31,693 bases of DNA. Source: Promethearchaeota archaeon (GTDB lineage: Archaea; Asgardarchaeota; Hermodarchaeia; Hermodarchaeales; Hermodarchaeaceae). The stretch is taken from the NCBI GenBank assembly GCA_048939245.1, contig JBHLPR010000026.1, positions 1 through 31,693 on the forward strand. The letters run 5' to 3'. Below are positions 4,815 through 13,616 of the stretch, piece after piece; positions within the stretch are counted from its first letter, which is position 1, and the number at the start of each line of letters is the position of its first letter. Both the position numbers and the translations under genes were made by a program. The notes below the pieces were generated by a model. That model was not told the DNA's origin, did not search any database, and saw only the letters and a program-made list of their open reading frames with translations.

Positions 4815-5079
4815 TAATTTACTTGATTACTGATCCGATTTCGTATGGGCTTTGACAAATTTCTCTTATCAAAGAATCTGCCATCTCTTCCCAAAATAGT
4901 GATAGCGATTTCTCTATAAGCACAACTTGGTAATCTGAGTTGAGCCATTTCGTTAAATAGAAACTAATCTACACTCACACGTTATCCCTTGAAGGTGTTA
5001 ACCATCTTTTTAAAACTCTTAAGACCCTTAAACAAGCGTACGAACACCTAGAACGTTGAAAAAAGGTATAGTGACAATT

Positions 5080-6516
5080 ATGAAGGTCCTCTTCGTTGAA
5101 CCTCCTAAGGACTACTGGTTTATTATGGGGGAGTATCGTCCACCACCCTTCGGCATCCTTTGCCTGGCGGCGTATCTTGAAGCCCATCTCGACGATGTGG
5201 AGATCCAGGTGGTGGATTGTCAGGCAGAACAACTTCATTGGGAGGGACTGGAAGACCGGATTAACAGGTTCAAGCCGGATATGGTCTGTCCAGGCGTGCT
5301 TTCGACGGTGAATGCCTTTCTGGTAGCTCGAACCGTTCAGCTAGCGAAGAAAGTGGATCCTGAGATTACGACGGTGGTTGGAGGGTTGCATTTCTCCGTT
5401 CTTGCCCAGGAAAGCCTTGACGCATACCCGGAAATCGATTTCGTGGTTCGTGGGGAAGGCGAACGCACCCTCTTAGACCTTGTCAAGACATTGGAATCTG
5501 GAGGCCCTCTCAAACAGGTGAAAGGAATCTCCTATCGGCACAAGGGAAAAATTGTCCAGACACCCAATCGCGCTTATATTACGGATCTTGATACCTTGCC
5601 CTATCCGGGGTATCATTTTGTTCGCGATCACATGAAGCACTATCATTTTACCATGATGGCTGGAAAGAACACCCCCTATGCATTAATCGAAGCTTCTCGG
5701 GGGTGCGACCATCAATGCTCTTTCTGCACTCAATGGCGATACTGGGGACGGTGTCGACGTAAATCCCCCACACGTGTAGCCGATGAATTCGAATATGTTT
5801 ACCATGAATTTGGCAGCCGATTCCTTTGGCTCACCGACGACAATCTGGGGTTAGGGAAGTGGATGGACCACTTCTGTGACGAATTACTCAGCCGAGGGAT
5901 TACCGATGACCTGCTCTGGTTCATGCAAATTCGCGCTGATGATATCATTACCCACCAAGCCCTGCTCCCGAAAATGCACCAGACCGGGCTACACTGGGCC
6001 ATGGCCGGCGTGGAAACCCATGAGGCGTCACGGTTAGAGAAATACCGAAAGGAGTTGAATCCGTCAATGGCTAAACAGGCCATGGATCTATTGAAAGCCA
6101 ATAATATCATGTCACAAACAACCGCTATCATTGGCGATCGCAACGACACGCATGAATCTATTGAAGCCTTCCGGAACTGGCTCGATGATGTCGATCCGGA
6201 CATTGCCATCTTTATGATTTTGACACCCTATCCGGGCACCGAATTATATGAGACCGCGAAACGCGAAGGCTGGATTGAGGAGGAGAATTGGTTCCACTAC
6301 GATATGGTGCACGCGGTGATGCCCACCGAACACCTATCGCGCCGCGAAGTCCAAGAAGAACTCTACCAGTGTTACCGGCAGTTCTTTGGGTCGTGGGGGC
6401 GTCGTATCGGCGGGTTGTTCTCATCCAATAAAATCAAACGCCGCTGTTACCGCTACATGATGAAACAAGGCGTGGTTCTTATGCTCAGAGATCTCTTTTT
6501 AGCACTCCGACCCTAA
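5080..6516 (+). CDS. cobalamin-dependent radical SAM protein (BchE-like architecture), paralog 1
   Basis: N-terminal B12-binding domain (PPFGILCLAAYL, VVGGLHFS, VVRGEGE); SRGCDHQCSFC (CxxxCxxC); DDN, GVET and TPYPGT. ATG 5080 preferred over TTG 5056 because it aligns with the paralog start. Confidence 0.92.
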   Translation: MKVLFVEPPKDYWFIMGEYRPPPFGILCLAAYLEAHLDDVEIQVVDCQAEQLHWEGLEDRINRFKPDMVCPGVLSTVNAFLVARTVQLAKKVDPEITTVVGGLHFSVLAQESLDAYPEIDFVVRGEGERTLLDLVKTLESGGPLKQVKGISYRHKGKIVQTPNRAYITDLDTLPYPGYHFVRDHMKHYHFTMMAGKNTPYALIEASRGCDHQCSFCTQWRYWGRCRRKSPTRVADEFEYVYHEFGSRFLWLTDDNLGLGKWMDHFCDELLSRGITDDLLWFMQIRADDIITHQALLPKMHQTGLHWAMAGVETHEASRLEKYRKELNPSMAKQAMDLLKANNIMSQTTAIIGDRNDTHESIEAFRNWLDDVDPDIAIFMILTPYPGTELYETAKREGWIEEENWFHYDMVHAVMPTEHLSRREVQEELYQCYRQFFGSWGRRIGGLFSSNKIKRRCYRYMMKQGVVLMLRDLFLALRP

Positions 6517-6725: not shown

Positions 6726-8180
6726 TCAGGATTGGAGGACTCTTCGCCGGCGATATTGCCACACGAGGACGATGACGACTCCAATGATAATGATCATGAC
6801 GGCCACGAGGATTGGAATGAGTGATTGGCTGACTCGGATTTGGTTTGTGCGGATGTCTGAGATTCGTAACATCCAGACATCACCCCAACACGTGTCACTA
6901 TATGCAATGAGGAGAAAGCTTGTGTCCTCAAGTTGTAAGGCGGTACCTACCGCATCGCCTAGCTCCTCGTAGCCATGAATCCATTGCCATAAGACATTAC
7001 CTGCATTGTCAAGGCGGACAAATGAGAGATCATAATGTATCCACCATTCTGTAATTGTATGGCTTCCGGCTAAAGCAAAGCCTCCATCCGAACATCCGAT
7101 TGCAATGTGACCGCTAGACCGCAATATCTTTTCCCATAATATGTTTCCTACGGCATCAATGCGAACAAGCCAAGGATAGGCATACATGGCTGCTTTTGTA
7201 GGCTGTAATTCTGCTGAATAGCCTGTGATCAGATATCCGTTATTTGGTTGTGGGATAATACAATAGAATCCATCATCAGACCAAGCTCCATAGGTGCGGT
7301 TCCATAACAGATTTCCCTCCTCGTCCGTGCAAACGAGGTATCCGTCTGGATTTGTTGTATTAAATACCGTTGTATACGATGAGAAACTTTCTGATGATCC
7401 TGCAATCAGAAATCCTGATTCAGTTCTCACTATGTCCCAAGCATGGTCAAAATCTTCTCCCCCATAGGTCTGATTCCAGAGATAGTTGCCGTTGGCATCA
7501 AATCGTATTAATAGGATATCAAACATGCCTGCGGCCCAATTTACGGTGGAGCCAACTATTGCTAGTCCTCCATCACTGCACTCGACTATTCGTTCAGTCC
7601 AGTCAGGCTTCGGGCCCCCGAAAGTAGTATTCCATAATAAAGTACCTTCCGCATCTGTTCGCACAAGGAGGACATCACCATCGTAATAATAATGGTCCAT
7701 TGAGTCGTTTTTCCAACTATGGATTGATGCCGCAATTGCAAATCCTCCGTCTGAACATTCTATGATTGAAACGCCCGCCTCATCGCAGGTAGTGCCGAGT
7801 GTCCGATTCCAGAGTAGATTCCCGTTTTGGTCAATTTGTCCCAGCCAAATATCTGTCTCCGAGATGTTGCCGCCGAGGCCCCAACTCGAAGTTGAGCCCA
7901 CAAAAATAAGTTCACCAGCTTTTGTTGTTATGACCTCGGCAATGGAATCTTCTCCATCGCCACCGATTGTTGTACTCGATAAAATGATGTCACTTTGGAC
8001 TGGGATGTATAATGCCCACCAATTTGTAATGGTAACTGCGCTTAGAAGCGTTAAGGTTGTCAACCCAATGGCGATTATTTGTGTCTGAGTCCATTTTGGA
8101 GATCGTGTCGCCGAAGGTTTGTTGGGGCTTCCTGTAGGTGGTTTAGGAATTTTTGGACAAGCCTCAGTTGTGGAGGTCAC
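6726..8180 (-). CDS. membrane-anchored extracellular beta-propeller-like repeat protein
   Basis: About 6-7 repeats of ~50 aa (GNLLWNRTLG, GTLLWNTTFGG, GNYLWNQTYGG, GNLLWNRTYGA; IIECSDGGFAIA, IVECSDGGLAIVG); N-terminal TM and C-terminal TM followed by RRRR. Likely start GTG 8180, overlapping the upstream TGA and preceded by GGGAGG (track start 8210). Confidence 0.85.
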   Translation of the reverse strand: MTSTTEACPKIPKPPTGSPNKPSATRSPKWTQTQIIAIGLTTLTLLSAVTITNWWALYIPVQSDIILSSTTIGGDGEDSIAEVITTKAGELIFVGSTSSWGLGGNISETDIWLGQIDQNGNLLWNRTLGTTCDEAGVSIIECSDGGFAIAASIHSWKNDSMDHYYYDGDVLLVRTDAEGTLLWNTTFGGPKPDWTERIVECSDGGLAIVGSTVNWAAGMFDILLIRFDANGNYLWNQTYGGEDFDHAWDIVRTESGFLIAGSSESFSSYTTVFNTTNPDGYLVCTDEEGNLLWNRTYGAWSDDGFYCIIPQPNNGYLITGYSAELQPTKAAMYAYPWLVRIDAVGNILWEKILRSSGHIAIGCSDGGFALAGSHTITEWWIHYDLSFVRLDNAGNVLWQWIHGYEELGDAVGTALQLEDTSFLLIAYSDTCWGDVWMLRISDIRTNQIRVSQSLIPILVAVMIIIIGVVIVLVWQYRRRRVLQS

Positions 8181-8665
8181 TTCCCTCCCCGGTTCTTTAC
8201 GTCGTGCCATTTTAATCGCCTCATAATTGTTTCAAATAACAGAATTGCTAAATCAGTGGGGGCCAAGTCTGATGGAATGGGGATGTCCCATTCTTTAGCT
8301 AATGTCGTGAGCGTGGCTTCGCACTTGGGATAGTCGCCGCATCCGTCGCAGTCGCCTTTGTGGGCATACCAGGTTTGGAGTCCGATGCTGGGTGAATAGA
8401 GGATGTAGGTGTCGGTTTGGGAGGCGGCGCAATAGCCGGTGGCAATGCCGTATCGTGTGCTCATTTTGTTTATGCGAATACGATTGGTTGAAGCGGCGTG
8501 CTGGATTAGTTTCTTGATGCGGGCTTCGGCGATGCGTTGTTCTTTGCTGATGAAGGGGCGTGAAACGTTGAGTTCTTCGGCGATTTCGGAGGGTTTAATG
8601 TTGCGTCGCCGTTGGGACCAAATCCAGTTTTGTTTGGGTGAAGGGTATCGTAACGAGGTAAACAT
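8177..8665 (-). CDS. HTH DNA-binding protein with C-terminal Cys cluster (putative metal-binding transcription regulator)
   Basis: HTH IKPSEIAEELNVSRPFISK; HKGDCDGCGDYPKC; ATG 8665 preferred (track start 8695). Confidence 0.8.
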   Translation of the reverse strand: MFTSLRYPSPKQNWIWSQRRRNIKPSEIAEELNVSRPFISKEQRIAEARIKKLIQHAASTNRIRINKMSTRYGIATGYCAASQTDTYILYSPSIGLQTWYAHKGDCDGCGDYPKCEATLTTLAKEWDIPIPSDLAPTDLAILLFETIMRRLKWHDVKNRGGK

Positions 8666-8728
8666 AGCAGTCACGCTTTCCTCTGAGTTTAGCAATTCCT
8701 CAAGTACTCTGCAATATGTGGTATCTGC

Positions 8729-8923: not shown

Positions 8924-10690
8924 TTAGGGAAGGTACCAGTCTTCGTATAGGGGATCTTCAGTGCGATAGTAATCATCGAAATCTGGATATGGTCCGTTGA
9001 TGGTGTTGCCTTCGCTTGGTGCTGGCCAGTCAGTATAGGGAACTACGAGAATATAGGGGACATCGATCCCTGGCGCAGGGTCTCCAAATATGGTGGTTGA
9101 TTGCCAATCGTTAATGTGCCAGTCATTGGGGCCATAGGATTTATCATACATCCAGGGGTCATAATAAGCAAAGACGGGGTCGAGGTCCCATCGGGGTGGT
9201 GTTGGGGCTGAACTATATGGTTCAGTGTTGGTTGTGAGTGTAATATCGATGGTGACTGTTTTTCCGACGACATATTGGTCACTAGTATCGAAGAGTATGA
9301 TATCGAAAGAGCCCGAACCTGTTTTGTCAATACATGGCTCAGTTTCAGTGCCATAGGCGGCGTGGTCTCGTGCTATAGTATAGGTATATGCAGTGAGGGC
9401 ATCGAAGGTTCTGGTTATGTGAATGTCATGGTTGTCACCGGCTAAGTGTACCACTGACGTGAATTCTAGATGTATTGAATCAAGAAAGCCATTGGTATAG
9501 GTTTCGAGGACGTACATGTTCATGCCGAAGTCGTTGTAATCGAAGTCACCGCTGGTGCGGTCTTCATAGCCGATGTAAGCGTTGCCTTCTTCAGGAAATG
9601 TAACGATGTTCTGCCATTCATAGGTGATGTAGGTGGCCCAGTTCTTGCCAGGAAAGTCCTCGCCCTCACCCCATGCGGTCTCGGCCTGGTAGATGGGAGT
9701 GCATTCAAGTCCGACATCAATGAAGGTGACTTGGGCAACAATGGTCTGTTGGCCATCTATAGGCGCTAAGATGACCGCAATGGAATCGCCACATCCTGGT
9801 TCAAAGCCTTCGCCATTGGCATAAGCGGCTGCCAAGATTTCGTCGACTCTGCATTGACTCCAAGAATTAAGACCGGCTTCTGATTGTGCGTCCTCGATTA
9901 GTGTCCAAATAGCTCGTTGCACATCTCCATAGGTGTATGTTCCAGGGCATCCGAAAGATGGTTGACCCACGTAGGCTTGGTTTATAATCCAATTAACGAG
10001 ATCCAAGTTTTCAGGGTGCTCAATCAAACCTTCTGGTGGGAAATAACTGGAATAGACATATGCGGTATATTCGGTGTTCTGATTGATGGTATTGTCAGTA
10101 TCGGCACACCAGCCTTCGTAGGTTCCGCTCAGGGGTTCACCTGTAACAGTCGTCACGGGGAAGTAGGCTGGTCCACCGGCATAGGGATATTGGACACTCA
10201 TCGCCATCGTATCTGGTAGTGCATTACTGAGGTCCTCCATTGTCGGGGGTTCGTAGCCGATGATGCGCTGAACCACTGCATGTGCAGCAATTACGAGTTC
10301 AGCATCAGGGAGCCAGCTGAGAGGAATCATGTAGGTATACCCGGTGATACAGGGATCCCATTCATCTTTGTAGGTGAAATGTCCAGGGATGGGGTTACCG
10401 TTCTTCTGCGGGATAAGACTAGAATCGGTGGCAACCTCGAGGTGGGTTTCAGTGATGCACCATGGTTCATCGGTCTGATAATGAACATAAAGGAACTCCA
10501 AATCATTCCATATACTAACGTCACCGACATCGATTGCGGATTTGATATTGCCACCTCCCGCAATCAAGTTCACGATGAGGGGGTCATCTTCCATGTGGGC
10601 GGTCGTTAGTGGAATGAGTCCAGCGAATAGAAGAACAATAGCTACTCCTAGAAACACGGTTTTTCGTTTCAGCGTTAACTCCTCCCTCAA
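8924..10690 (-). CDS. secreted multidomain protein: signal peptide, split beta-rich domain, thioester-domain (TED)-like insert, LruC/DUF4842-like C-terminal domain
   Basis: Signal peptide KRKTVFLGVAIVLLFAGLIPLTTA; host-domain motifs LIAG..GNPIPGHF..AAHAVV and ETAW..GKNWATY; insert GWCAD, VQRAIW and GQQTIV; YEDRTSGDFDYND...PYILVVP..WPAPSE...PYPDF...DWY. The true start may be CTG 10672. Confidence 0.8.
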   Translation of the reverse strand: MREELTLKRKTVFLGVAIVLLFAGLIPLTTAHMEDDPLIVNLIAGGGNIKSAIDVGDVSIWNDLEFLYVHYQTDEPWCITETHLEVATDSSLIPQKNGNPIPGHFTYKDEWDPCITGYTYMIPLSWLPDAELVIAAHAVVQRIIGYEPPTMEDLSNALPDTMAMSVQYPYAGGPAYFPVTTVTGEPLSGTYEGWCADTDNTINQNTEYTAYVYSSYFPPEGLIEHPENLDLVNWIINQAYVGQPSFGCPGTYTYGDVQRAIWTLIEDAQSEAGLNSWSQCRVDEILAAAYANGEGFEPGCGDSIAVILAPIDGQQTIVAQVTFIDVGLECTPIYQAETAWGEGEDFPGKNWATYITYEWQNIVTFPEEGNAYIGYEDRTSGDFDYNDFGMNMYVLETYTNGFLDSIHLEFTSVVHLAGDNHDIHITRTFDALTAYTYTIARDHAAYGTETEPCIDKTGSGSFDIILFDTSDQYVVGKTVTIDITLTTNTEPYSSAPTPPRWDLDPVFAYYDPWMYDKSYGPNDWHINDWQSTTIFGDPAPGIDVPYILVVPYTDWPAPSEGNTINGPYPDFDDYYRTEDPLYEDWYLP

Positions 10691-10751
10691 ATTGAGGTGG
10701 TATTAATTGATAGACGTGGGATAAATAGTTTTCAATGGACTGGGAACAGGT

Positions 10752-10790: not shown

Positions 10791-10898
10791 GGAAGTGTTG
10801 GGTGGAATTTGCGTTGAAGGGGTTTTGGGCGTTTGAAAATGGAAGACTTTTCTAGGGGGAAGGATAAGAGGGGTAGCAAGGTTTCTTTGAGGGATATT

Positions 10899-13616
10899 AT
10901 GCAAATCTCTTCGAAAATTCGAATTGGAGTTGTATTGTGTTTCTTAGCGATTCTCTCGGTGAGCGTCTTTTTTTCCGTGGCTGCTCCTCCGGTTTCAGGG
11001 TCGGGGATTCCCACGCCTGGGAGCGGAGTTTATGCTGAGGATTTCGCTTCGACAACGCACTTGTTAACAGCCGATGCCTATGGTTGGGGTCTTGGGACCG
11101 TAACGGGTGATCGGGTAATTACGAACGGCCTCCTTGACACCTATGGTTCGGTGGGTCCGGTGATGGGCGTGGATACTCAGGGGCGCAAAGTCTATTTTGT
11201 CTCCTTTGGTAGCACTGCGGCAAGCAACAATATTCTCAATGTTACAGATCCGGCGAATCTTCAGCTCATGAGCTCGCGGAATTCGTTAAATGATCTTAGG
11301 TGTGCCCATATTGATGGTGACATCTTCTATGCAGGGCGGAACGTGGGTCTCGCCATGTATAATGTGAGTAACCCTTACAACTATGGTGGTACAGGAGTCT
11401 ATCTGGGATACGTCACTCTCGATGGGGTGGTTACCGATATTGATACCCAGGGACATGTTGTCTACTGTACAGCACGTGGGTCTGCAGGCTTTCGGTCCTT
11501 TAAAATGATTGATGTCGAAGATCCATATAATCCTCAGGTTATACCGAATTTCTGGGGGTCTGATTGGACGCTGGGCCTCGATATTGAGGGGCAACTGGCC
11601 TATTTGGCTGAAGATTATTGGGGACTCTATATCCTCAACATTTCCAACCCCTATCTAATCCAAGCATATGACTATGTCAATACACCCGGAAATGCCACCG
11701 ATGTACTCGTTGAGGGACCACTTGCCTATGTGGCTGATGGACCCAGTGGCATCCACGTCGTTGATGTCAGCGATCCCAATGACATCAGCATCTTAGGATC
11801 CTGCAATACACCAGGTAATGCCCGGCGATTAGCCCTCCAAGGGAAGACCCTCTTCGTCGCGGACGAGGATGGCGGGGTTCGGGTGATTGATGTCTCGGAT
11901 CCCACCCATCCAACAAACGTGACATCCATGAGTGCACCTATCGCCTATGATGTAGCCTTGTACGGGGGCATCTTAGTCGTTGGGACAAATCTCGGAGTTC
12001 AAACCTTCGAAATTGGAAACTATGTTACTACACTCGCGCCTCAAGGCAGCTTTTCAGGTGGCTATGAATTCTGGGACGTCAAAGTTCAAGGCGATGTTGC
12101 ATACATCGCTGCTGGCGAAGATGGACTAATCGCCTTGGATGTTAGCGATCCGGCAGCCCCGGTCTTTCTTGACTCTCATGTAACGACAAGTAACCGGTTT
12201 TACCGTAAACTCGATGTGCAAGGACATCTAGCCGTGGTCGCTGATTTCGGCCCAGGTGGCGGTGCACGAATCTACGACATCTCAGATCCAACCAACCTTC
12301 GTTACGTCGGAACTTGGTTACTCACTTATCCCACAGATATTGTAATCTATGGCGAGGTCATATTCGTTGCTGATGCTGTGGCAGGAGTTTATCTAGCTAA
12401 TATTTCCACCCCAAGTACACCTGTTATGATTGACGCATTTGATCTAGGGACAAGTAATGTGACTGGCTTAGCGGTTCAAGGGCATTTCCTCTACGCTGTT
12501 TCAACGACAACGAGTGCTGATGATACCTTTACCGTCTTTGATATTACCGATCTGAGTAATATCCAACCCCTTGATACAATGCTTGGTAGCTATTCACACT
12601 ATGATGTCTTCATCGATGGTGATTATGCTCTTGCCACAGAACTTGGAAACGCTCCCATTTGGAACGTCACGGATCCGAACGATATCACGACCACAGATGT
12701 GATAAATGGCGTCGTTGGTGAATGTCTGGGGTGCTGGGGTTTTGGACCTTACGCCCTCTTCGCTAATGGGAGCGCAGGGCTAATGCTCGTCGATGCCACG
12801 AATTTACAGAACATGCAAGTGGCTGACATTTATCTTCCTGCCTCCGGTGCTATTCAAGTGACAGTTCACGGCGATTACATCTATCTTGCTAATAAAACAT
12901 CACTGGTCATCTTTCGCCTCTTTGAAAGTACTGGTACAACTTATGTTACTGGCGCGTCCATGGCACAATCTGATGCCCTGTATGCATCCGTCAACTTCGT
13001 GTACGAAGCTACGCTGGATGTCACCACTTACGTTCCAACCGATACAAGCATCGCGTTTGAATTGACAGCCGATGGAGGTAATCACTGGGAGGCGGTTACA
13101 CCTGGGGTCTCACATAACTTCGCTCACCTAGGACACGATTTGCACTGGCGGGCGATCTTTACCACTAGTCGCAACGATCACAGTGCCCATCTCTATAACT
13201 TAACGCTCTCCTATACTTGGACTGTTCCCCCGTCAACACCAATCCTAGATGATCCTGGTGATTCTTCACTGGTAGGCGATATTACGGTTTCATGGGCTGC
13301 GAGCACTGATTCTGATGGCAGTATTGACCACTACGAGCTCCAAATGAGCGATAGTGCTAGTTTTACAACAATCCTTGACACCTTTACGCCATCTATGACA
13401 ACTTACGACATCACCGGTCTCGCTGCCGGTACCTATTTCTTCCGAGTCCGTGCTTTCGATAATAACGGTGCGTGGAGTAGTTGGAGTAGTGAAGAAGACA
13501 TTGCCATTGTTACACCACCCCCACCTGTTATTCCAGGATTTCCAATTGTTGCCGTCATCACGGGACTGATAGTTGCCATTGGCTTTGGTGTTCTCTTACG
13601 TCGTAGGAAGCGGTAA
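10899..13616 (+). CDS. LVIVD-repeat surface protein with FN3 domain and PGF-CTERM-type sorting signal
   Basis: Signal peptide; many repeats of the type AYVADGPSGIHVVDVSDP / LFVADEDGGVRVIDVSDP; FN3 motifs VSWAASTDSDGSIDHYELQ...YFFRVRAFDNNGAWSSWS; C-terminal PPPPVIPGFP-TM-RRRKR. ATG 10899 with GAGGGA RBS (track start 10833). Confidence 0.9.
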   Translation: MQISSKIRIGVVLCFLAILSVSVFFSVAAPPVSGSGIPTPGSGVYAEDFASTTHLLTADAYGWGLGTVTGDRVITNGLLDTYGSVGPVMGVDTQGRKVYFVSFGSTAASNNILNVTDPANLQLMSSRNSLNDLRCAHIDGDIFYAGRNVGLAMYNVSNPYNYGGTGVYLGYVTLDGVVTDIDTQGHVVYCTARGSAGFRSFKMIDVEDPYNPQVIPNFWGSDWTLGLDIEGQLAYLAEDYWGLYILNISNPYLIQAYDYVNTPGNATDVLVEGPLAYVADGPSGIHVVDVSDPNDISILGSCNTPGNARRLALQGKTLFVADEDGGVRVIDVSDPTHPTNVTSMSAPIAYDVALYGGILVVGTNLGVQTFEIGNYVTTLAPQGSFSGGYEFWDVKVQGDVAYIAAGEDGLIALDVSDPAAPVFLDSHVTTSNRFYRKLDVQGHLAVVADFGPGGGARIYDISDPTNLRYVGTWLLTYPTDIVIYGEVIFVADAVAGVYLANISTPSTPVMIDAFDLGTSNVTGLAVQGHFLYAVSTTTSADDTFTVFDITDLSNIQPLDTMLGSYSHYDVFIDGDYALATELGNAPIWNVTDPNDITTTDVINGVVGECLGCWGFGPYALFANGSAGLMLVDATNLQNMQVADIYLPASGAIQVTVHGDYIYLANKTSLVIFRLFESTGTTYVTGASMAQSDALYASVNFVYEATLDVTTYVPTDTSIAFELTADGGNHWEAVTPGVSHNFAHLGHDLHWRAIFTTSRNDHSAHLYNLTLSYTWTVPPSTPILDDPGDSSLVGDITVSWAASTDSDGSIDHYELQMSDSASFTTILDTFTPSMTTYDITGLAAGTYFFRVRAFDNNGAWSSWSSEEDIAIVTPPPPVIPGFPIVAVITGLIVAIGFGVLLRRRKR

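Follow-up and report, generated by a model that had tools for sequence, protein, structure and literature searches.

A 588-amino acid protein encoded on the minus strand of contig JBHLPR010000026.1 from a Promethearchaeota archaeon (assembly GCA_048939245.1; the window analysed is the stretch of 31,693 nucleotides from position 1) carries a thioester domain (TED). The assignment of its residues 161-329 to the bacterial TED superfamily, as a genuine though divergent member, is well supported. The domain probably forms a thioester between Cys195 and Gln320 through which the protein would bond covalently to an amine of its target, in an adhesive role. TEDs are characterised solely in Gram-positive bacteria and are so described in papers up to October 2026 (PMC4450167, PMC6194298). 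They feature a [YFL]CΦζ motif holding the cysteine, a helical TQxxΦW motif that lies beside the bond but does not form it, and a weak ΦQζΦΦ strand motif with the bond-forming glutamine (PMC4450167, PMC6194298).

An earlier sequence-only reading of this DNA, whose account of the known motif elements agrees with that literature, had proposed a TED-like module at coordinates 9701-10243, which correspond to residues 150-330. The motifs that it listed (YEGWCAD, DVQRAIWTLI and GQQTIV) are all present in this order and their codons match the DNA, where Cys195 is read as tgt (10106-10108), Gln258 as caa (9917-9919) and Gln314/315 as caa cag (9746-9751). Gln320 is encoded by caa at 9731-9733. The fold, the cysteine motif and the QxxΦW helix motif all bear out the proposed module, while the choice of the glutamine is revised below. 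The gene and the features of its thioester domain are the following:

8924..10690, minus strand: the whole TED gene, coding a 588-residue protein of three modules from a TTG start.

9704..10210, minus strand: the thioester domain (residues 161-329), compact and class-I-like, inserted in a host sandwich; identified by its fold and by family-level PF08341 matches.

10106..10108, minus strand: Cys195 (W-C-A-D), the predicted thioester cysteine; identified by conservation, by covariation that leaves it unpaired and by TED alignments.

9905..9922, minus strand: V257-Q258-R-A-I-W262, the helix motif equivalent to TQxxΦW; identified by conservation and by its place in model helix 254-265.

9731..9733, minus strand: Gln320 (A-Q-V-T-F), the most likely thioester glutamine; identified by TED alignment offsets, conservation and co-loss with Cys195.

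9746..9751, minus strand: Gln314-Gln315, the candidates of the earlier reading; in a loop according to DSSP and less conserved.

9701..9949, minus strand: the four other cysteines of the TED with two putative disulfides, C248 (9947-9949) with C280 (9851-9853) and C300 (9791-9793) with C330 (9701-9703).

Residues 30-365 were modelled with AlphaFold2 from an alignment with 122 homologues, at a mean predicted local distance difference test score (pLDDT) of 96.5 and a predicted template modelling score of 0.85. The TED alignments span model residues 132-300 (161-329 in protein numbering), and the domain is organised in the model as four strands, three helices and two strands. The best Foldseek matches in the PDB are all TEDs from Gram-positive bacteria: CpTIE-TED (5a0g, 4.3e-4) followed by Cpa (2xi9), SfbI-TED (5a0l) and Cpa-N (4c0z). 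VIA-align superposes the domain on CpTIE-TED with a Z of 10.2 and a root-mean-square deviation (rmsd) of 3.7 Å over 149 of 176 residues, and gives Z values of 7.6-9.6 against the remaining solved TEDs of both classes (I and II). A search independent of Foldseek against 48,161 PDB representatives places TED entries at ranks 1-6, 8 and 9 (Z 7.1-9.9); in this exhaustive search no non-TED fold was matched to residues 161-329. Over both searches the TED matches (Z 7.1-10.2) cover 130-160 residues, which is the whole domain. That all solved TEDs, and TEDs only, match residues 161-329 is the unusual point despite the moderate Z values.

The last elements of the modelled domain are helix 279-292, strand 303-311, a loop of 10 residues and strand 322-327. 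The class II of TEDs is ruled out, since its sandwich insert of ~75 residues is absent and 10 residues separate the penultimate and the last strands. In the model of residues 30-365 no helix is predicted at the class I alpha0 position. Because the class II sandwich is absent and the alpha0 position has no helix, the modelled domain is a compact, class-I-like TED.

The sequence evidence for the assignment comes from the family of the protein. A word-indexed search found 661 homologues of the 588-amino acid protein, and an exhaustive search with query residues 135-345 gave a TED family of at least 1,212 cluster representatives (50% identity) at E<=0.001, with 250 at E<=1e-30. NCBIfam does not recognise this family and the Pfam TED model catches a minority of its members; some are already labelled TED in databases via Pfam. 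Homologues P0024, P0120 and P0108 score above the Pfam TED cut-off (29.2, 25.6 and 24.2 bits, respectively, against 22) and in them PF08341 matches the region that corresponds to query residues 170-275 in the alignment. A Pfam scan of the domain alignment found PF08341 at E<=0.01 in 49 of 121 aligned family members and matched no other family. The PDB sequence matches of the 588-amino acid protein itself (Cas2, ryanodine receptor and RGS6) were dismissed as chance.

Conservation was counted in 254 domain copies aligned from the homologues, with denominators that vary by position. Cys195 is retained in 245 of 250 copies, in agreement with the conservation that the sequence-only reading attached to a thioester cysteine, and Asp197 in 241. 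The helix residues Gln258 and Trp262 are found in 246 and in 250 of 252 copies, respectively, and Gln320 in 210 of 227 (~92%). Conservation is 98-99% for Cys195, Gln258 and Trp262, and 96-99% with Asp197 included. The residue that precedes the cysteine is Trp in 199 copies, Tyr in 37 and Phe in 10. In some family members position 195 is occupied by Ser, Tyr or Phe, or position 320 by Glu or Trp. Conservation of these motifs is beyond chance. In the model W-C195-A-D is localized at the end of strand 189-195.

The four other cysteines of the domain appear to pair among themselves. The C248/C280 pair is complete in 107 copies and wholly missing in 113, with only one of the two in 13 (p 5e-50), and 197 copies have both C300 and C330 (p 8e-7); these p-values, and those given below for co-loss, are indicative only as the sequences are related to one another. 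Cys195 is retained whether or not C248 and C280 are present. The covariation points to C248-C280 and C300-C330 disulfides, with Cys195 as the sole unpaired conserved cysteine. A disulfide of Cys195 with C248, C280 or C300, which the sequence-only reading had named as an outcome contrary to a thioester, is ruled out by the same covariation.

The glutamine that would form the bond is probably Gln320, as judged from the model and from the family alignment. The bonds of known TEDs join Cys138 to Gln267 in CpTIE, Cys109 to Gln261 in SfbI and Cys94 to Gln247 in PnTIE (PMC4450167), and the known bond of Cpa joins Cys426 to Gln575. In each structural alignment the position of the known glutamine was counted back from the last aligned residue. 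It is found 9 residues back in 5a0d_B / 5a0g_C, 8 in 5a0g_A, 9 in 2xi9_A, 10 in 2xid_B, 7 in 5a0l_A and 8 in 5a0n (in both searches), always leading to model residue 291. This residue, Gln320, is the one reached in 7 of 8 alignments to four solved TEDs; the eighth (5a0l_B) leads to residue 290 and no TED alignment puts the glutamine at residue 286. The cysteine positions computed likewise from the four solved TEDs fall at most 5 residues from Cys195.

Family data lead to the same residue. In alignment A3 the conservation of Gln320 reaches at least 90%, and the constant feature is a glutamine exactly 10 residues before Cys330. The equivalent of Gln320 occurs alone in 44 sequence variants, that of Gln315 alone in a handful. 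Gln320 is also missing in 3 of the 5 copies that lack Cys195 versus 14 of the 218 that have it (p 0.003), and Trp262 is missing in 2 Cys195-less copies versus none of 244 with the cysteine. Gln314/315, the partner proposed by the sequence-only reading, was said to lie on a terminal strand but is found in a loop of the model according to DSSP. Conservation favours Gln320 over Gln315, which is present in just 160 of 231 copies. In favour of a thioester made with Gln315 (or Gln314) instead of Gln320 are the QQTIV sequence, a closer fit than AQVTF to the weak ΦQζΦΦ motif, and ~13 copies with Gln at 315 and Glu or Trp at 320. Such a thioester is nevertheless unlikely, considering the alignment offsets, the absence of Gln315 in ~30% of copies and the lack of association between loss of Gln315 and loss of Cys195 (p 0.17).

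A chain of reactions can be proposed by analogy with known TEDs. On folding, the Cys195 thiol would attack the side-chain amide of Gln320 with release of ammonia, leaving a buried Cys-Gln thioester with Gln258 and Trp262 of the central helix on its flanks. The thioester would then be attacked by a primary amine of the target (a Lys side chain or another amine). Gln320 would end up in an isopeptide link, the Cys195 thiol would be freed and the protein would be covalently fixed to its ligand. The SfbI TED reacts in this manner with a fibrinogen amine, leaving an isopeptide bond (PMC4450167). The sandwich and the LruC-like domain of the archaeal protein (see below) would probably give non-covalent recognition, possibly of a glycan, or hold the protein at the cell.

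Several observations speak against an adhesive, thioester-forming TED. The 588-amino acid protein has no match to Pfam TED (PF08341) or NCBIfam TQXA (TIGR03934) at E<=10, and the PDB TEDs are not found by sequence with this protein nor with profiles from alignments A2 and A3. Structural similarity to TEDs is moderate (Z about 8-10, rmsd 3.5-4.5 Å, 9-13% identity). Trp precedes Cys195 where canonical TEDs have Tyr, Phe or Leu, a conservative departure, and the Thr of TQxxΦW is replaced by Val or Ile in the family, here by Val. The assignment of Gln320 uses the first and last aligned residues only and not a residue-level superposition, while Gln315 is also common and a few copies combine it with Glu or Trp at 320. 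An LPXTG or other C-terminal anchor, a stalk and a conserved gene neighbour are all lacking, which makes it hard to explain how the bond would tether a cell.

Different explanations of these data can be envisaged. The motifs might resemble those of TEDs by chance only, in an unrelated domain, as the absence of any direct Pfam, NCBIfam or PDB sequence match of the 588-amino acid protein to a TED would allow; the family-level Pfam matches, the TED-exclusive structural matches in two independent searches and the conservation of the motifs rule this out for practical purposes. A TED fold that makes no thioester has a low probability. The domain would then be a non-covalent binding module, with another role for Cys195 (for example free thiol, redox switch or metal ligand). 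The position of the protein under the Pfam TED threshold, the indirect case for the thioester itself and the members with Ser, Tyr or Phe at 195 and Glu or Trp at 320, whose scaffold tolerates the loss, are all compatible with such a module. The near-invariant cysteine, terminal glutamine and Gln/Trp helix residues constitute instead the pattern of active TEDs, Cys195 is the only conserved cysteine predicted to be unpaired, and its loss accompanies that of Gln320 and Trp262.

The same chemistry could also serve self-anchoring, the TED fixing the secreted protein to an amine of its own envelope (S-layer protein or glycan) and the Ig/CBM-like and LruC-like domains being the functional parts that face outward. 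This is plausible because the protein has no C-terminal anchor, and it has no sorting signal or stalk either. Most relatives consist of a signal peptide, the sandwich and the TED alone (~350 residues), and the unit of sandwich and LruC-like domain exists without TED in homologue P0040, so that the TED looks like an add-on. Self-anchoring is nonetheless improbable: it has no precedent, known TEDs binding foreign targets (PMC4450167), the N-terminal hydrophobic segment could itself anchor the protein, and the TED of giant relatives is found among stalk repeats like an adhesin head. The covalent attachment of a TED to a target amine through Cys195 and Gln320 is the likely reading of the ensemble.

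The TED is one of the modules of the 588-amino acid protein. The others were delimited as follows:

10595..10690, minus strand: residues 1-32, a probable Sec signal peptide or N-terminal signal anchor (KRK, a hydrophobic stretch of 20 residues and TTAH).

10250..10585, minus strand: residues 36-147, the N-terminal part of the host Ig/FN3/CBM-like beta-sandwich (model residues 7-118).

9605..9700, minus strand: residues 331-362, the C-terminal strands (ETAWG...) that complete the host sandwich (model residues 302-333).

8927..9613, minus strand: residues 360-588, an LruC/DUF4842-like beta-sandwich with the acidic motif DFDYNDF, identified by sub-threshold profiles and a fold match.

The DNA under study has one long open reading frame (ORF), the TTG-initiated one of 588 codons on the minus strand. 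The database copy of the protein begins 11 codons downstream, at GTG 10657. The start is ambiguous (10657-10727, minus strand): a TATTTAT box lies ~31-37 nucleotides upstream of TTG 10690 and a GGAGG motif sits just inside the ORF, while a start at GTG 10657 leads to loss of the positively charged n-region of the signal peptide. The protein is probably exported, as predicted from its N-terminal signal with KRK and the 20-residue hydrophobic stretch. Homologues have N-termini similar to it and that from Haloferax marinum has a twin-arginine motif. No LPXTG, stalk repeats or C-terminal transmembrane segment were found in the 588-amino acid protein by inspection of its sequence and Pfam scan.

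Model residues 7-118 and 302-333 align jointly as a single Ig/FN3/CBM-like sandwich, within which the TED is nested. The best matches of this host domain are of a generic kind (CBM56 5t7a with Z 7.7-7.9, DUF3244, the N-domain of beta-glucan recognition proteins and FN3). Its residues E337, T338, A339 and W340 are invariant. A near-invariant polar and aromatic set (W61, N62, D63, Y71, H83, K96, H137, E337, T338 and W340) is also conserved in homologues without TED and could be a putative glycan-binding platform, in line with the CBM56 and beta-glucan recognition matches (Z about 7-8), a metal site or an intramolecular cross-link. Homologue P0040 (384 residues) has no insert and joins query residues 7-142 directly to 335-588; therefore residues 143-334 are a cassette inserted in a pre-existing two-domain protein. 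P0032, P0085 and P0110 have also the insert-less organization of sandwich plus LruC, judged by length and position of the C-terminal domain. A different insert occurs at the same site of the sandwich in P0033 and P0080, with a weak F5/8 type C match in the latter. The site behaves in these sequence comparisons as an apparent cassette slot.

The C-terminal domain matches LruC TIGR04456 with 32.8 bits (cut-off 36) and DUF4842 PF16130 with 12.5 bits (cut-off 22), and PF13448 is also sub-threshold. In the Pfam scan of the whole protein DUF4114 and DUF4842 are the only matches, both sub-threshold. The model of these C-terminal 230 residues has a pLDDT of 86 and its sole Foldseek match at E<=0.001 is 3oqq, a putative lipoprotein of Bacteroides ovatus (E 2.4e-4). 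These data support relatedness to LruC/DUF4842 only.

Most relatives of the protein have ~350 residues and feature a signal peptide, the sandwich and the TED only. At the other extreme are giant relatives, where stalk repeats (DUF11/DUF7507 or SdrD_B/SpaA) are interspersed with as many as 5 copies of the TED. In P0122 (3310 residues), P0123 (3283 residues) and the products of loci L026 and L027, 2-5 tandem TED copies lie between such DUF7507/DUF11 or SdrD_B/SpaA repeats, and one giant TED relative has also MopE-type metal-binding motifs. Multi-copy ("multi-warhead") TED proteins are not described in the TED literature searched. Sorting signals of the PEP-CTERM or VPDSG-CTERM type are found in related Atlas clusters. 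The forms of these relatives are consistent with a place at the cell surface. The orthologue from Haloferax marinum MBLA0078 (L018:3509-4606) has 365 residues, composed of sandwich and TED after the twin-arginine signal TRRSLL, and displays the motifs FCVD, VQRAIW and GQVVV.

Archaeal carriers of the TED include metagenome-assembled genomes (MAGs) from the Promethearchaeota, Hodarchaeota and Thorarchaeota as well as Thermoplasmatota, Haloferax marinum MBLA0078, Methanosuratincola, Methanosarcinaceae and Bathyarchaeia, and bacterial carriers include Planctomycetota, Bacteroidota, Verrucomicrobiota, Cyanobacteriota, Myxococcota, Acidobacteriota and others. The closest relatives of the 588-amino acid protein are found in Promethearchaeota and Hodarchaeota MAGs, the first being one from a Promethearchaeota MAG (L002) with 82% identity over the full length, whose locus shows partial synteny, with an epimerase gene and a small ORF nearby. 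Closest relatives and partial synteny identify the host as the Asgard archaeon that the sequence-only reading had considered possible. The gene is single-copy in the host genome, and no second TED or other PF08341 match was found elsewhere in this 88% complete assembly. Sampling of the phylum detected it in 7 of 201 genomes, and 3 of the 15 genomes of the genus have it.

A quick maximum likelihood tree groups the Asgard sequences in one cluster beside Planctomycetota, with one Phycisphaerales sequence nested within. The archaeal label needs six changes on this tree, whose support is weak and whose starred branches force one only. Because presence of the gene is patchy and bacterial copies are 64-67% identical, the comparison suggests that it probably moved between domains, in either direction. 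The TED gene is a patchy accessory gene common to many bacteria and no Asgard-specific trait.

No conserved gene neighbours of the TED gene were found by tblastn of the neighbours or by all-against-all clustering of ORFs from 79 loci. The tblastn search revealed partial synteny with the closest MAG only, and the one ORF set recurrent in the 79 loci, antisense to the TED gene and overlapping with it, was read as shadow ORFs. A divergently transcribed gene 142 bp upstream (10833-13616, plus strand) codes a 927-amino acid protein in which LVIVD repeats and a PKD/FN3-like domain are combined with a transmembrane anchor at the C-terminus that ends in RRRKR. Its predicted features are those of a typical anchored surface protein, and the closest MAG shares just a fragment of it in synteny. 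Two ORFs on the same strand as the TED gene and downstream of it code 494 (6726-8210) and 172 amino acids (8177-8695) without Pfam match, and no counterpart to them was found in the 79 related loci. A gene on the plus strand (5056-6516) codes a B12-binding radical SAM enzyme.

The TED gene belongs to a large, mostly unannotated clade that spans Asgard, halophilic, methanogenic and other archaea as well as bacteria. The sequence-only reading stated that it knew of no characterised archaeal example, and none is described in the literature searched, nor is any other TED outside Gram-positive bacteria. Asgard archaea have a biology that depends on contact with partners. If the thioester forms, they would have an attachment factor open to testing, covalent attachment would be a strategy of prokaryotes in general, and a compact, disulfide-stabilised TED would be available for use as a protein-ligation tool. 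A broader picture, more speculative and at present somewhat doubtful, is that thioester chemistry is a widespread and horizontally mobile module of archaea, Asgard included, and diderm bacteria; in the cell studied here, it would weld a secreted protein, guided by its CBM-like sandwich, to an amine on a syntrophic partner, the extracellular matrix or its own envelope. Haloferax marinum MBLA0078 is a cultured haloarchaeal carrier, tractable for testing the chemistry directly. The gene informs little on Asgard ancestry since it is patchy (7/201) and probably moved between domains.

Comparison with known systems places the archaeal domain near the class I TEDs of Gram-positive TIE adhesins: CpTIE-TED (5A0G/5A0D), SfbI-TED (5A0L), PnTIE-TED (5A0N) and FNE (5DCQ). 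They have in common a beta-barrel together with a bundle of three helices (Z 7.1-10.2 over 145-160 aligned residues), a strand-terminal cysteine within an aromatic-C-Φ-acidic motif, QxxΦW on the central helix, a conserved glutamine at a structurally equivalent position at the start of the last strand, and no class II insert. The archaeal domain differs by its 9-13% identity and a score below the Pfam threshold, by Trp in place of Tyr/Phe/Leu before the cysteine and Val in place of the Thr of TQxxΦW, by the lack of a predicted alpha0 helix between strand D and the first helix, and by two extra covarying pairs of cysteines that are putative disulfides. It is hosted by an archaeon and is not N-terminal on an LPXTG-anchored stalk. 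The organization of TIE adhesins, with N-terminal TED, a stalk of isopeptide/ester domains and C-terminal LPXTG, is not that of the 588-amino acid protein.

Class II TEDs (BaTIE 6FWV, SaTIE 6FX6, EfmTIE86 6FWY and the pLS20 conjugation adhesin) superpose through their upper lobe (Z 7.6-8.8). This class is defined by a beta-sandwich insert of ~75 residues and a slipknot before the glutamine strand (PMC6194298), and the archaeal domain has neither. The C-terminal 230 residues of the protein have their sub-threshold matches in LruC/DUF4842 proteins (TIGR04456, PF16130), with 3OQQ as the closest structure.

The nested arrangement has a parallel in the pilus tip adhesin Cpa/Spy0125 of Streptococcus pyogenes (2XI9/2XID), whose TED is likewise nested inside a beta-sandwich domain. 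The host domain of Cpa is of the CnaB type in a sortase-assembled pilus, while that of the archaeal protein is CBM56/FN3/DUF3244-like (Z about 7) and shows no sign of an isopeptide bond, pilus or sortase. The Cpa TED sits within this isopeptide domain (PMC6194298). Model residues 125-301 align with Cpa 382-585 (Z 9.4-9.6), Cys426 and Gln575 of the streptococcal adhesin mapping to Cys195 and Gln320 of the archaeal protein.

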